64,000 nucleotides of DNA from a virus, in the IMG/VR virus record IMGVR_UViG_3300022925_002539, positions 37,580 through 101,579 of that record; one strand, 5' to 3'. The position numbers and the translations under genes are program-made. How positions within the stretch are numbered: position 1 is the stretch's first letter; the number at the start of each line of letters is the position of its first letter. The notes below the pieces were generated by a model. That model did not search any database. It was not told where the DNA came from and saw only the letters and a list, made by a program, of their open reading frames with translations. Positions 28,602 to 38,842 of this stretch are shown in pieces.

Positions 28602-28680
28602 ACTTTGCTAAATAAAGCAACGGTAAAATAACAAGACTCAATTTTTTTTGAGCAAATTTTTTTTGACAAAAGGAAACAAA

Positions 28681-29523
28681 ATGACGCAACTAATAGAACC
28701 AAGTAAATTTACAGACACAGTAGGCCTTTTAAGGTCCTTTTTTTTGGACAAAGGATTTTTAGAAGTACATACACAAAACAGACTAAGCATACTAGCTGCA
28801 TGTGAAGATCCATTTAATGTAGCAACATACAATTACGCAGGCCAAGTATGGCCACTACCACAAACAGGCCAAATGTGGTTAGAACATGAATTATTAAGTA
28901 AGCCCGATAGTAAGGGCTTTTTTTGTGTGTCCACTAGTTACAGACAAGAGCCAAATGCTATACCAGGCAGACACGACATTATCTTTCCAATGTTTGAATT
29001 TGAAATGCCAGGAGACATAAATGACCTTAAGAAGATGGAATACGAATTATGTGAATACTTAGGCTTTCCAGCAATAACAGAAAAGACATATGCTGATTGG
29101 CAAAAATATTATGGACTTGCTAGTGATTATGAAATGACTGCTGAAGAAGAAACGAAAATGTACAACGAGTTTGGTGCCACTATGATAACAGACTTTCCAG
29201 AAATGACATCACCATTTTGGAACATGAGCAGATATCCAGGTGAAACCGAAAGTAAAAAGATTGATGTTATACTTGGTGGTATGGAAACAATAGGTAGTGC
29301 AGAACGTAGTACAGATGTAGACATGATGAGAGATACATTTCATACTATTACAGATGGTGCTTATAGTAACTTACTTTACAAACTGTTTGGCAAAGATAGA
29401 GTAGAAGCAGAACTGGAAGAGTTCTTAAAGTTTGACTTCTTTCCAAGAGTTGGTGGAGGAATAGGCATGACAAGAATGATTGCGGCTTTAGAAAAACATA
29501 ATGCACTAGCAAAGGCGGCTTAG
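28681..29523 (+). CDS. stand-alone class II aminoacyl-tRNA synthetase catalytic domain (Asp/Asn/Lys-RS type), no anticodon-binding domain
   Basis: motif 1 LRSFFLDKGFLEVHT, LPQTGQMWLE, motif 2 SYRQE..GRH..FPMFEFE, ETIGSAER, motif 3 GGGIGMTR; 280 aa from the ATG after AAGGA. Confidence 0.88.
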   Translation: MTQLIEPSKFTDTVGLLRSFFLDKGFLEVHTQNRLSILAACEDPFNVATYNYAGQVWPLPQTGQMWLEHELLSKPDSKGFFCVSTSYRQEPNAIPGRHDIIFPMFEFEMPGDINDLKKMEYELCEYLGFPAITEKTYADWQKYYGLASDYEMTAEEETKMYNEFGATMITDFPEMTSPFWNMSRYPGETESKKIDVILGGMETIGSAERSTDVDMMRDTFHTITDGAYSNLLYKLFGKDRVEAELEEFLKFDFFPRVGGGIGMTRMIAALEKHNALAKAA

Positions 29524-29530
29524 TTTATAA

Positions 29531-29631
29531 TCTGGGGTGATGAAATCGGTAGACATGCACGACCGTTTATCGTGTGTTAAATGTACTGCAATATATTTAG
29601 CGTGTAGGTTCGAGTCCTACCCCCAGAGCCA
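29531..29631 (+). tRNA. non-canonical tRNA with GUU (Asn) anticodon and 29-nt variable arm
   Basis: acceptor TCTGGGG/CCCCAGA + G + CCA; D-arm ATG/CAT with GG; CACGA-CCGTTTA-TCGTG; variable stem GTTAAATGTA/TATATTTAGC; GTAGG-TTCGAGT-CCTAC. Confidence 0.9.
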
Positions 29632-29652
29632 AACTGCAATATAAATAGAGTT

Positions 29653-30717
29653 ATGTACGCAGTTTATCAACATTGGGATCCACTAGAAGTATGTGTCGTT
29701 GGCAAAGCGTATCCTCCAGAATTTTATAGTTGGATTAAAGATATAGATACACGTAAAAAGTTTGAGCAAGTAGCATTAGAAACAGAAGAAGATTTTCAAA
29801 AATTAATAAAGTTACTGGTTCAATTTGATGTTGAAGTATTACGTCCAACTATACCTGACACATTTGAAAATTGCATGGTTGATAATATATGGGTACCTCC
29901 ACCAGTTACTCCAAGAGACTATTTTATTCAAATACATGATAAATGTTGGGTACCAGTAGTTCCAAATGCTAACCATGCACATAATGCTTTCAAAAAACAA
30001 AAGCAAAAAACATGGGCTCAGTTTCAATTGCATGACCAAAAGAAGCATAATAGAAAATTAGATTTTTATAAAGACATTTTTAAAAAATGCAATGTCAAAC
30101 CTACAGACTGTAGTTATATTTCTGGATGCTTTGTAAGTAGACTTGGAAACGATTTATTTTTTGCAACACAAAGTATATATGACGACTGGACTGCAATCCA
30201 AAAAAACGTAAATGAATTATTTCCTAATACAAATAATCATATAGTTGATGCACAAGGACACGGTGATGCAGTATATTGTCCTGTTGCTCCTGGATTAATT
30301 ATTAGTATTGCTAACGAAGACTATAAAGATAGTTTTCCTAATTGGGAAGTTGTGCATTTACCTGAAAGTCACTATGCCGCACATAAAATGTTTCAAGCAA
30401 GTATGAAACTGAATGCAGGCAAATGGTATATTCCTGGCTTTGATGAAAATCCTCTTATTACAGAAACTGTAGATAGTTATATGAATGATTGGATAGGTGA
30501 AGTAAGTGAAACAGTATTTGGTGTTAACATTTTAATTATTAATCCTACAAATGTAGTTCTTGCTGAATATAATAAACAAGCAGTTGATGCGTTAACTCGT
30601 CATGGCATAACTGCACATATTTCACCTTTTAGACACAAGTATTTTTGGGACGCCGGAATACACTGTGTTACAAACGATTTAAGTAGGCGAGGTTCATGCC
30701 AACGATACCATTTTTAG
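29653..30717 (+). CDS. amidinotransferase (glycine/inosamine-phosphate type)
   Basis: WDPLEVCVVG, TPRD, HGDA, C-terminal GIHCVTNDL catalytic Cys. Confidence 0.82.
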   Translation: MYAVYQHWDPLEVCVVGKAYPPEFYSWIKDIDTRKKFEQVALETEEDFQKLIKLLVQFDVEVLRPTIPDTFENCMVDNIWVPPPVTPRDYFIQIHDKCWVPVVPNANHAHNAFKKQKQKTWAQFQLHDQKKHNRKLDFYKDIFKKCNVKPTDCSYISGCFVSRLGNDLFFATQSIYDDWTAIQKNVNELFPNTNNHIVDAQGHGDAVYCPVAPGLIISIANEDYKDSFPNWEVVHLPESHYAAHKMFQASMKLNAGKWYIPGFDENPLITETVDSYMNDWIGEVSETVFGVNILIINPTNVVLAEYNKQAVDALTRHGITAHISPFRHKYFWDAGIHCVTNDLSRRGSCQRYHF

Positions 30718-31550
30718 AATTACAAGTAAACCAAGCATGTAATCTATCCTGTACAGGATGTAGTACCTTTAGTGACCTAAAGTGGAGTGGTTATTTTACT
30801 TGGGAAGAAGGACGTAGTTGGTTAGTGCCATGGATTGATAAAGTACACTTGCCTGCTATAGGATATATGGGAGGTGAACCTTTACTCAATCCTACAATAA
30901 AAGAATGGATACGTGGTGTAAAAAAATTATTACCTGATGCTCAACAACGTTTTGTAACAAATGGTACACTAATACAAAGACACTGGGACGTTTTTCACTT
31001 ACTAAGAGACATAGGAAACAGTGTTTTTAAAATTACATATCATATAAGTACACCAGCATTGGATGAAGCGATAGATAGAATATTCCAAAAATATGAATGG
31101 AAAAAGGTTACAGAATTTGGTATTGATCGTTGGCTAGAACCAAGTACTAATTTTAGATTACAGATTAACAAACCAGATACTTTTGTTAGAGTATTCAAAA
31201 ACGATTACAAAAACATGGCACCATTTGATAGTAATCCTGTTGAGGCATTTGATGCATGTTGCCAACAAAGATGTCCTTTATTATACAAAGGAAAAATATA
31301 CAAATGCGGACATCTTGCTTACTTGCCAGAATTACTTGACAGATTTGATAGACCTAATTATGATTTATGGCAACAGGCATTAGGATATGGACATAGTCCA
31401 GATGATAATATGGATGCTTTTGCTAACAATTTTGGTAAACCACACAAAATTTGTAAAATTTGTCCTACTAGCAAAGATACGGAACAATTTGTTGCACATA
31501 AAGACAACATAAAAATAAAAAGCAAACTACCAGTTGACATAATAGTATAA
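30696..31550 (+). CDS. radical SAM protein with C-terminal Cys cluster
   Basis: CNLSCTGC, MGGEPLL, VTNG, YKC, CKIC. Confidence 0.88.
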   Translation: MPTIPFLELQVNQACNLSCTGCSTFSDLKWSGYFTWEEGRSWLVPWIDKVHLPAIGYMGGEPLLNPTIKEWIRGVKKLLPDAQQRFVTNGTLIQRHWDVFHLLRDIGNSVFKITYHISTPALDEAIDRIFQKYEWKKVTEFGIDRWLEPSTNFRLQINKPDTFVRVFKNDYKNMAPFDSNPVEAFDACCQQRCPLLYKGKIYKCGHLAYLPELLDRFDRPNYDLWQQALGYGHSPDDNMDAFANNFGKPHKICKICPTSKDTEQFVAHKDNIKIKSKLPVDIIV

Positions 31551-37360: not shown

Positions 37361-38842
37361 ATGACTGATCTCCCAACTAACCTAACAGAACTACAAAAAG
37401 ACTATGCAGTATTTTTACCTGCTCTTAGTAGTTTCTATGTAAATGTAACAGGCAAAATAAAACATACTGCAGGCACAAATGAACCAAGTGTCCTTCCTGA
37501 ACGTATACCTAAGCCTATTAGTGCAGATGTACGAGAACTTGACTACTTAAAACCTAATGCACTCTGGCACTATAAGTGGAGTCTACATAGTGCAGGTCAT
37601 GCTAGTTTAGATATAGAAAAAGACTTACCTCGTGAATATATGTATCGTCATCGTGATAAAACAAGTAGTTTTATGCTAGGTGATAGTGGTGGATTCCAGA
37701 TTGGTAAAGGCAAGTGGCCAGGTGATTGGAAGGCAAATAGTGGATGTCCACAAGCACAAAAGAAACGTGAAAGTGTACTGAAGTGGATGGACGAATATAT
37801 GGATTATGGAATGATCCTAGATGTTCCTGCTTGGTTAAGTCGTGAACCGGAAGGTGCAAAGGCGGCTCAGATTAGTTCATATCAAGAGGCAGTAGATGGA
37901 ACTGCATTTAACAATGAATACTTTGTAAACAATCGTAATGGAAATTGTAAGTTCTTAAACGTATTACAAGGTGAAAACCATGCACAAGCCGATGATTGGT
38001 ATAATGCAATGAAAAGGTTTAGTGATCCTAAAATTTATCCTGATGCACATTTTGAAGGTTATGGTATGGGTGGACAAAATGCATGTGATGTACATCTTAT
38101 ATTAAAAAGAATAGTAACCTTAATGCACGATGGTTTACTTGAAAAAGGTAAACATGATTGGATGCATGTTTTAGGAACAGGAAAACTTGAATGGGCTGGT
38201 GTACTGACTGCTATACAACGAGGTGTCCGTAAATTATATAATGAAAATTTTACTGTAAGTTTTGACTGTGCAAGTCCTTTTCTTGCAACAAGTAATGGAC
38301 AACAATATACACATTATCGTATGCCACACAATGGCAAGTGGAAATACATGATGGAAGATGCACCTGATGATAAAAACATGAGTAACAGTATACAAAGTTA
38401 TGATGAATATTGTGAAAGTATATATGATAAATGGATACCTAGTCCTATAACTGAACTAATGAAAGTTAAGGATATTTGTGTCTATGCACCTGGTGATCTT
38501 AACAAAATTGGTAAAGAGGGTAAAACAAGTTGGGATACATTCAGTTATGCACTTCTAATGAATCATAATATGTACTTACACATACGCAGTGTACAGGAAA
38601 CAAATAGACTATATGATGAAGGTCAGTATCCTAAAGAACTAGTTGATGATAACTTTGATCGTACTGAAGTAAAAGATGTAATTGCACACTTGTTTACAAT
38701 GGATGATCGCGACAAACAAAATAAACTAATAGAAGATCATAGTCGACTATGGATGAAAGTTATAGGAAGTCGTGGTGCAACTGGTAAAAGAACAGTAAAT
38801 GCAAGTACACAATTTGCAAGTTTATTCGAGGAAGTTAGTTGA
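37361..38842 (+). CDS. dpdA: TGT-fold 7-deazaguanine transglycosylase (DpdA-like)
   Basis: GDSGGFQ, MILDVP, NVLQG, GMGG, HVLG, SFDC motifs; no CxCxxC zinc site; located in the replication module. Confidence 0.78.
   Translation: MTDLPTNLTELQKDYAVFLPALSSFYVNVTGKIKHTAGTNEPSVLPERIPKPISADVRELDYLKPNALWHYKWSLHSAGHASLDIEKDLPREYMYRHRDKTSSFMLGDSGGFQIGKGKWPGDWKANSGCPQAQKKRESVLKWMDEYMDYGMILDVPAWLSREPEGAKAAQISSYQEAVDGTAFNNEYFVNNRNGNCKFLNVLQGENHAQADDWYNAMKRFSDPKIYPDAHFEGYGMGGQNACDVHLILKRIVTLMHDGLLEKGKHDWMHVLGTGKLEWAGVLTAIQRGVRKLYNENFTVSFDCASPFLATSNGQQYTHYRMPHNGKWKYMMEDAPDDKNMSNSIQSYDEYCESIYDKWIPSPITELMKVKDICVYAPGDLNKIGKEGKTSWDTFSYALLMNHNMYLHIRSVQETNRLYDEGQYPKELVDDNFDRTEVKDVIAHLFTMDDRDKQNKLIEDHSRLWMKVIGSRGATGKRTVNASTQFASLFEEVS

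Follow-up and report, generated by a model that had tools for sequence, protein, structure and literature searches.

In a 64,000-nucleotide stretch of viral DNA (positions 37,580 to 101,579 of IMG/VR record IMGVR_UViG_3300022925_002539, hereafter the window), an intact, long-armed tRNA gene with the anticodon GUU begins 7 nt past the stop codon of a gene for a small enzyme that resembles the catalytic core of asparaginyl-tRNA synthetase (AsnRS). Judged by its sequence, this tRNA joins the body of a tRNA-Leu to the acceptor end and anticodon of a tRNA-Asn, and in marine phages it is linked to the enzyme in both directions. We tentatively propose, at a confidence somewhat short of probable, that both genes form a phage-owned pair in which the core charges the tRNA with asparagine for the decoding of AAY codons, leaving the flanks of the anticodon free to vary, perhaps in escape from nucleases.

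The linkage was approached from either side. Starting from the enzyme, for which at least 597 stretches matched in IMG/VR and 80 loci were fetched, the tRNA lies 3' of the gene in 80 of the 82 loci where the enzyme was found, as recognized by a family covariance model at 72.5 bits or more, while one more locus ends at the contig edge. The model scores range from 72.5 to 118.6 bits in these 80 loci and the window, and every other tRNA stays at or below 59 bits. Starting from a DNA pattern of the tRNA only, 79 viral loci were found, and the enzyme is located directly upstream on the same strand in all 77 that could be tested, the other two lacking room at a contig end; a tRNA without the enzyme thus occurs in none of the 77. 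In 78 of the 80 loci, 4-10 nt separate the tRNA from the stop codon of the enzyme. The DNA of the enzyme matches a gene annotated as 'tRNA ligase' in the Prochlorococcus phages P-SSM7, P-SSM2 and P-SSM5, in each case followed by a 'tRNA-Asn' of 85-86 nt. This tRNA is the sole tRNA of the complete P-SSM2 genome, and P-SSM7 carries it together with three others. The pair is often situated within tRNA arrays, yet no standard tRNA-Asn is present in any of the flanks examined. Flanking genes vary widely by lineage while the pair persists, and no third gene conserved beside it was found among the compared lineages. The initial annotation had considered that the neighboring enzyme may charge the tRNA; a functional link is supported by the two-way linkage, whereas the charging itself is what we infer from it.

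On the enzyme tree, all 71 tRNA-linked enzymes fall into one clade (support 0.97) that is nested among stand-alone ones, indicating a single origin of the partnership with the tRNA, in marine phages. Near-identical enzymes (e.g., L010, L011, and L012) differ in the loop type and arm length of their tRNAs, and the tRNA part is therefore either exchanged or fast-changing, but always inside its own family.

The tRNA is under structural selection. In an alignment of 20 homologues, from which the family covariance model was built, 97.7% of the cloverleaf cells are paired, 14 of 22 pairs have changed on both sides and covariation is present in all four stems; none of 500 shuffles matched this pairing, and slid controls were paired in 37-60%. 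Compensatory changes were likewise counted in 15 of the 24 pairs predicted from the alignment. The initial annotation had described a 101-nt GUU tRNA with all stems paired, an encoded CCA, the anticodon loop CCGUUUA, a 29-nt variable region with a 10-bp stem and a 6-nt loop, and a 3-bp D-stem, and each of these elements was recovered at the positions listed in Table 1. Its view that the gene is intact and not decayed, which it had left to be refuted by a lack of compensatory changes in homologous loci, is borne out by the pairing and by the presence of such changes. It was also right that a tRNA-Asn normally has a short variable loop, which is precisely what makes this family odd.

The window tRNA belongs to class II, since its variable region exceeds 10 nt and forms a hairpin (computed fold, -7.2 kcal/mol) and its D-stem has 3 bp. 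Its acceptor and T stems have the 7/5 geometry and not the 8/4 or 9/3 geometry of an allo-tRNA. With cmscan on the local region, RF00005 matches over the full length (41.6 bits against a gathering score of 29, E 1.2e-7). When Rfam was run with default filters on the whole window the tRNA was not called, and ARAGORN gave no call either. The ARAGORN miss persists after an in-silico change of C33 to U, so that the long arm is the obstacle and not C33. A single-sequence minimum free energy fold did not recover the D and anticodon arms, and the cloverleaf rests on the covariance model and covariation. Among the homologues, long-arm members (L011, L040, L048, L055, L067, and others) are mislabeled by ARAGORN as tRNA-Asp(AUC), tRNA-Glu(CUC), tRNA-Ile(AAU), tRNA-Asn(AUU) or a tRNA with a four-base anticodon, or are missed entirely, and annotation pipelines will consequently under-report or misname the family.

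The body points to leucine and the extremities to asparagine. The best cellular matches of the family model are tRNA-Leu genes (60-71 bits, in five cellular genomes). The D-arm stretch of L019 and L011 is letter-identical to that of the cellular tRNA-Leu(UAA) genes L161 and L160, the D arm of the window being a few bases off, and the frame of the variable arm (one U, a hairpin, GU) is the same as in bacterial tRNA-Leu. The bacterial asparagine identity set consists of the GUU anticodon and G73, whereas U1-A72 is the mark read by GatCAB, G73 acts as antideterminant versus LeuRS and TyrRS, and C2-G71 as antideterminant versus E. coli SerRS (PMC9976931). In the 54 distinct sequences to which all family tallies refer, U1-A72, G73 and GUU are invariant, and 52 of them encode the CCA. 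A C-G pair occupies 2-71 in 13 of the 20 aligned homologues and likewise in the window. Compared with a tRNA-Asn, GUU, G73 and U1-A72 are thus in place, while the short variable loop of 4-5 nt and A37, capable of carrying N6-threonylcarbamoyladenosine (t6A), are lacking. For a tRNA-Leu, A73 and a leucine anticodon are absent, G73 and GUU standing in 54 of 54. As to tRNA-Ser, the body is of the leucine type and the window has C2-G71 in place of G2-C71; this body and pair, together with the asparagine acceptor marks, disfavor a serine reading.

Around the fixed GUU, the anticodon loop is changeable. The loops are CUGUUUA (22 of 54), UUGUUUC (12), CUGUUAA (10), CUGUUCA (5), CCGUUUA (2), CUGUUUC (2), and CGGUUUA (1), in which U32 invariably goes together with C38. 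Position 37 is U in 39 sequences, A in 10, C in 5 and G in none, which amounts to a pyrimidine in 44 of 54, and U33 is found in 51. Both bases flagged as unusual by the initial annotation, C33 and U37, are present in the window; U37 turns out to be typical of the family, and C33 alone is rare, being confined to the window, L004, and L005. The T stems of the window and L004, which both have C33, differ by a double change that keeps the pair; by this comparison C33 has been inherited within a tRNA on which structural selection continues to act, and is neither decay nor a sequencing error. G18G19 and the UUCGA T loop are retained throughout, and the conservation of U33 and of the 32/38 combinations is that of decoding tRNAs. 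The variable region extends over 11-37 nt with a stem of 3 to 10 or more bp, and its layout is constant: a hairpin preceded by one unpaired U and followed by two unpaired bases. In long-arm homologues (29586-29601 in the window), the hairpin retains the loop sequence GCAA and the 3' strand UAUUUA, whereas its 5' strand is variable and occasionally mismatched; pairing by itself would not require such conservation. Metatranscriptome contigs from four studies, which carry no information on ends, strand or level, run from the 3' end of the enzyme gene through the tRNA into the next gene with zero differences from the window and show no sign of editing at C33.

The upstream enzyme has an open frame from a TTG at 28648 up to a TAG at 29521-29523 and matches PF00152 with E 4.6e-17 over residues 24-285. 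It starts at motif 1 and scores only 20.2 bits with the model for full-length AsnRS (TIGR00457, cut-off 342.6); overall, the AsnRS and AspRS models of NCBIfam give 20-25 bits against cut-offs above 340. An AlphaFold2 (AF2) model was obtained with a mean pLDDT (predicted local distance difference test) of 94.7. In VIA-align, this model is placed first with AsnRS cores (Z 27.8, 27.7, and 26.9), followed by the further class IIb cores of yeast AspRS (24.6), GenX (24.2), AS-AR (23.3), and AsnA (20.6), and Foldseek likewise puts the enzyme among class IIb cores. The family profile matches AsnRS (E 9e-14) and AS-AR (E 1.8e-4) and has no AsnA match. All three class II motifs, with the arginines of motifs 2 and 3, are kept across the enzyme family, and the pocket motif Q-M-x-L-E aligns with Q-L-x-x-E of AsnRS, unlike Q-L-Y-K-Q of AspRS. 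The predicted protein is thus an intact AsnRS-like catalytic core, closest to AsnRS in modeled fold and pocket motif. It corresponds to PHROG 29758, of unknown function; cluster names for the family offered generic labels only, and at least 8000 matching clusters make this a very large protein family in marine data. Net charge was dropped as a test for RNA binding: the core carries -6.4 per 100 amino acids, but full-length AsnRS of the same cellular genomes are also acidic (-1.1 to -4.0). Residues specific to the phage clade (e.g., Ala for Pro, motif 2 loop) were uninterpretable as a clue, the clade being shallow.

Relatives of this core also occur on their own. A scan of prokaryote genomes delivered 76 enzyme-family loci, among which the tRNA is present only on six contigs of marine metagenome-assembled genomes (enzyme identity 62-85%), and these contigs are probably phage. 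No such tRNA was found beside the 44-60% identical enzymes of Weeksellaceae, Chitinophagales, Chlamydiota, Dependentiae, Candidate Phyla Radiation (CPR), DPANN, and Alphaproteobacteria, or with the enzyme homologue of two huge phages (LR756501.1 and LR756508.1). Uncharacterized AsnRS-like cores of ~270-300 amino acids without an anticodon domain stand alone in cellular metagenome-assembled genomes (L084-L159), Bacteroidota included, and in huge phages. Some stand-alone cores have a degenerate motif 2 and motif 3. The cellular gene neighborhoods consist of housekeeping genes (PEPCK, DHODH, and an antiporter) and gave no functional lead; the distant protein P0221 had no match in the viral contigs.

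In the mechanism that we propose, the enzyme gene and the tRNA would be co-transcribed, and RNase P would free the tRNA a few bases past the stop codon. The core would activate asparagine and esterify it to the tRNA, reading the acceptor end and perhaps the long-arm body rather than the anticodon. The resulting Asn-tRNA would read AAU and AAC, which make up 5.7% of the codons in a phage of 34% G+C, while G73 would exclude LeuRS and TyrRS and C2-G71 would exclude SerRS. Because charging would be independent of the anticodon loop, bases 32, 33, 37, 38, and 39 around GUU would be free to change, and the C33 of the window may be one such lineage-specific change, which would presumably also keep Tgt from inserting queuosine. 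Variable flanks may let the tRNA evade host anticodon-loop nucleases such as PARIS AriB. The targets of AriB, tRNA-Asn among them, have U36-A37-A38-U39 in common beside the cleavage site (PMC12409363), and tRNA variants of phage T5 counter this nuclease (PMC12409363, PMC10264068). The tally of loops and first stem base shows that U36-A37-A38-U39 is missing in 49 of the 54 distinct sequences; nuclease escape as driver of the changes at 37-39 is plausible. A private charging and decoding pair would explain the exclusive linkage in both directions, the tolerance for diverse loops and arms and the lack of any other tRNA-Asn. It would also explain the odd body, serving as a handle for a core devoid of an anticodon domain and keeping off the host enzymes that use class II arms.

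Several observations weigh against this proposal. The stand-alone relatives are left without an explanation: the tRNA-linked and stand-alone groups have identical catalytic and pocket residues and probably share the same chemistry, so that this chemistry needs no such tRNA and the enzyme may plausibly act without any tRNA, for instance in asparagine synthesis. We found no residue pattern peculiar to the phage clade that points to new RNA contacts. Inside that clade, the L054/L057 lineage has kept the enzyme and lost the tRNA, which is not present elsewhere on the 187-kb contig either. The tight linkage could in part be inheritance of a unit spaced by 6 nt, and the metatranscriptome contigs are also compatible with DNA carry-over. 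In addition, a pyrimidine at position 37, the oddest trait of the family, is almost unheard of in decoding tRNAs and excludes t6A37, the usual support for the decoding of ANN codons (PMC6103715).

The stand-alone relatives lead to an alternative that we regard as possible, though on balance unlikely, namely that the core is a tRNA-independent, ammonia-dependent asparagine synthetase like archaeal AS-AR or bacterial AsnA, and that the tRNA serves ordinary decoding after being charged by host AsnRS or by a non-discriminating AspRS in combination with GatCAB. Both genes would then be linked by raising the supply of Asn-tRNA for an AT-rich, Asn-rich phage proteome, in line with the share of asparagine codons given above. 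Truncated AsnRS paralogues are known as asparagine synthetases (3P8T is among the matches), the shared catalytic and pocket residues in cells and huge phages and the lineage devoid of the tRNA fit well, and the invariant GUU, G73, and U1-A72 are exactly those read by host AsnRS and GatCAB. Seven of eight core-bearing cellular genomes encode a full-length AsnRS, and four of the eight (G002, G003, G042, and G048) have neither AsnA nor AsnB; another one (G005) already possesses AsnRS, AsnA, and AsnB in addition to the core, which argues in the opposite direction. The co-occurrence of the core and AsnRS in Chlamydiota (4 of 4) was discarded as evidence, being expected by chance with a probability of ~0.2 at the base rate of 55 of 81. 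Such an asparagine supply leaves unaccounted for the tRNA-Leu body, the long arm and the fact that a standard tRNA-Asn never takes the place of this tRNA. It also has to accommodate that the tRNA was never seen without the enzyme (0 of 77), and that in both sequence and fold the enzyme has more in common with true AsnRS than with AS-AR or AsnA.

The remaining alternatives take the tRNA away from ordinary decoding or change what it carries. It is doubtful that the tRNA is a non-decoder, as the pyrimidine at 37 and the C33 of the window might indicate, which is either loaded by the private core for a non-ribosomal reaction or, as Asp-tRNA, amidated by the core in place of GatCAB. More improbable is the variant, raised in outline in the initial annotation, in which the tRNA receives its amino acid from the core or from the host but stays away from the ribosome and donates its aminoacyl group to a metabolite, the cell wall, hypermodified DNA or a protein, or acts as a decoy for a host defense that binds tRNA. 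Indeed, the pyrimidine at 37 in 44 of 54 sequences is a mark of the known non-proteinogenic tRNA-Gly, and the invariant A51-U63 is the pair that weakens EF-Tu binding there (PMC6103715). The window is furthermore rich in sugar, deazaguanine, and radical SAM genes. A weak 51-63 pair, however, is expected of a genuine tRNA-Asn too, the tRNA and enzyme genes have no conserved third gene at their side, and the decoder features named above (G18G19, T loop, U33, and 32/38 combinations) are kept; the tRNA gene moreover sits within tRNA arrays, and the loop of 10 of the 54 members, CUGUUAA, is the fully canonical one of tRNA-Asn. We give very little credit to a one-protein, tRNA-dependent synthesis of asparagine, in which a non-discriminating host AspRS would load aspartate by way of GUU and G73, and the core would bind the Asp-A76 end, adenylate the side-chain carboxylate and amidate it with ammonia, replacing GatCAB. 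The invariant U1-A72, the AsnA/AS-AR-like fold and the retention of an anticodon that the phage enzyme cannot read are in agreement with this route, yet it is without precedent, the pocket is AsnRS-like and seven of the eight tested core-bearing cellular genomes have AsnRS and need no transamidation. Least credible of all is a recoding of asparagine to serine, put forward in the initial annotation, by which host SerRS would accept the long arm and G73 and load serine, so that AAY is read as Ser. Long arm and G73 are there, but body and arm frame are of the tRNA-Leu type, and C2-G71, found in most members, is the published E. coli SerRS antideterminant (PMC9976931). G73, taken at the time as a sign of tRNA-Ser, is equally the asparagine discriminator, and in combination with U1-A72, which is no serine feature, and GUU the acceptor end reads as tRNA-Asn. 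The arm length varies from 3 to 10 or more bp, and the strictly linked AsnRS-like enzyme would have no role.

Table 1. Positions of the tRNA, its structural elements and the upstream enzyme gene in the window.
Feature	Position	Strand	Support
Class IIb (Asp/Asn/Lys-type) synthetase catalytic core, 280 aa, no N-terminal OB-fold (oligonucleotide/oligosaccharide-binding) anticodon-binding domain	28681..29523	+	PF00152
Class II tRNA, 101 nt, anticodon GUU, CCA encoded	29531..29631	+	RF00005 41.6 bits; family covariance model 114.7 bits
Acceptor stem, 5' strand (partner 29621-29627; first pair U1-A72)	29531..29537	+	7/7 paired; 5/7 covary
D arm: 3-bp stem (29540-29542 / 29554-29556), 11-nt loop with G18G19, tRNA-Leu type	29540..29556	+	2/3 pairs covary
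Anticodon arm: 5-bp stem (29558-29562 / 29570-29574), loop CCGUUUA 29563-29569	29558..29574	+	5/5 stem pairs covary
Anticodon-loop positions C33; G34-U35-U36; U37	29564; 29565-29567; 29568	+	sequence
Variable region, 29 nt: U, 10-bp stem (29576-29585 / 29592-29601), 6-nt loop CUGCAA, GU	29575..29603	+	fold
T arm: stem GUAGG/CCUAC, loop UUCGAGU; A51-U63 invariant	29604..29620	+	pair 50-64 covaries
Discriminator G73 (29628) and encoded CCA (29629-29631)	29628..29631	+	sequence and family tally

Downstream of the tRNA, an exact TATAAATA, the T4 late-promoter consensus, is located at 29640-29647 of the window, 9 nt past the CCA, and precedes by 5 nt the ATG (29653) with which the next gene starts. 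Two genes follow (29653-31550), encoding a 354-amino-acid protein without a Pfam match (PHROG 25854, unknown function) and, overlapping with it, a radical SAM protein; neither is kept beside the pair in other lineages. Other tRNA genes of these phages also deserve mention. A class II tRNA-Ser of 89-90 nt with the anticodon ACU (loop UUACUAA) is found outside the window (G000, contig C1:22331-22419) and in a related phage locus (L031:873-962); its A34 is unusual for serine, GCU being normal. In arrays adjoining the pair, ARAGORN reports a 94-nt 'tRNA-Ile(UAU)' (L011:2819-2912, L035:1407-1500, and L038:4364-4457), which may hold an intron or a long arm, being too long for a standard tRNA-Ile. 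In the P-SSM2 record (L002, NC_006883.2), the annotated tRNA-Asn at 164094-164179 falls inside an unrelated coding sequence, while the actual gene directly follows the 'tRNA ligase', at 162083-162168; this looks like a coordinate shift in the record.

Both genes are thus already annotated in three phage records, but we found no paper on the pair, its body type, its pyrimidine 37 or its linkage; the enzyme appears as a single table row ('tRNA ligase', T4-GC 194) in a comparison of 2010 (PMC3037559). If the core indeed charges the tRNA, both would constitute a natural, compact pair of ~0.95 kb that works without anticodon recognition and is probably insulated from the host synthetases, making it a candidate for orthogonal translation systems and an example of a synthetase swapping its identity handle. 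It would also account for the single tRNA of P-SSM2, and with it a new kind of self-sufficiency in translation would be spreading among marine phages that infect different hosts. The fast turnover at positions 32, 33, 37, and 38 around a fixed GUU offers a testable link to tRNA-targeting defenses. In addition, an uncharacterized family of AsnRS-like cores has come to light in CPR, DPANN, Chlamydiota, and Bacteroidota, and long-arm tRNAs prove to be overlooked or wrongly labeled by common tRNA finders.

The phage tRNA shares features with several known systems without coinciding with any of them. It has GUU, G73, and U1-A72 in common with bacterial tRNA-Asn(GUU), and the loop CUGUUAA of 10 members is that of E. 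coli tRNA-Asn, yet it differs by its 3-bp D-stem, a variable arm of 11-37 nt, a pyrimidine 37 in 44 of 54 members (no t6A37) and its private enzyme. Bacterial tRNA-Leu (UAA, CAA, and UAG) provides the closest D arm (L019 and L011) and variable-arm frame, whereas the phage tRNA has G73 for A73, U1-A72 for G1-C72, the anticodon GUU and a different T stem. Allo-tRNAs (Mukai et al. 2017) reportedly combine a long arm and non-Ser anticodons with an 8/4 or 9/3 geometry and serine identity; a long arm with an anticodon foreign to the class II amino acids is shared, but the 7/5 geometry and the asparagine acceptor marks are not. The non-proteinogenic tRNA-Gly of Staphylococcus has lost D-loop and T-loop consensus features, which the phage family keeps. 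Both have pyrimidine 37 and A51-U63 (PMC6103715). Phage T5 encodes tRNA-Lys, tRNA-Thr, and tRNA-Asn that oppose PARIS AriB, and these are similarly phage tRNAs for ANN codons with changes beside the anticodon (PMC12409363, PMC10264068). They have a normal body and depend on host synthetases.

On the side of the enzyme, AS-AR (3P8T), AsnA (11AS), and EpmA/GenX (3A5Y) are equally stand-alone cores of ~280-330 amino acids without OB fold (Z 23.3, 20.6, and 24.2), but the phage family is nearer to true AsnRS cores (Z 27-28; E 9e-14 versus 1.8e-4 for AS-AR), and we know of no truncated class IIb paralogue that is linked to a tRNA gene. In dedicated anomalous pairs such as ProRSx/tRNA-ProX of Streptomyces and PylRS/tRNA-Pyl, a synthetase gene likewise neighbors an unusual tRNA that is not expected to be a substrate of the standard enzymes. 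In contrast to these, the phage enzyme lacks an anticodon-binding domain, the pair would act on ordinary sense codons of the matching amino acid, and its carrier is a phage.

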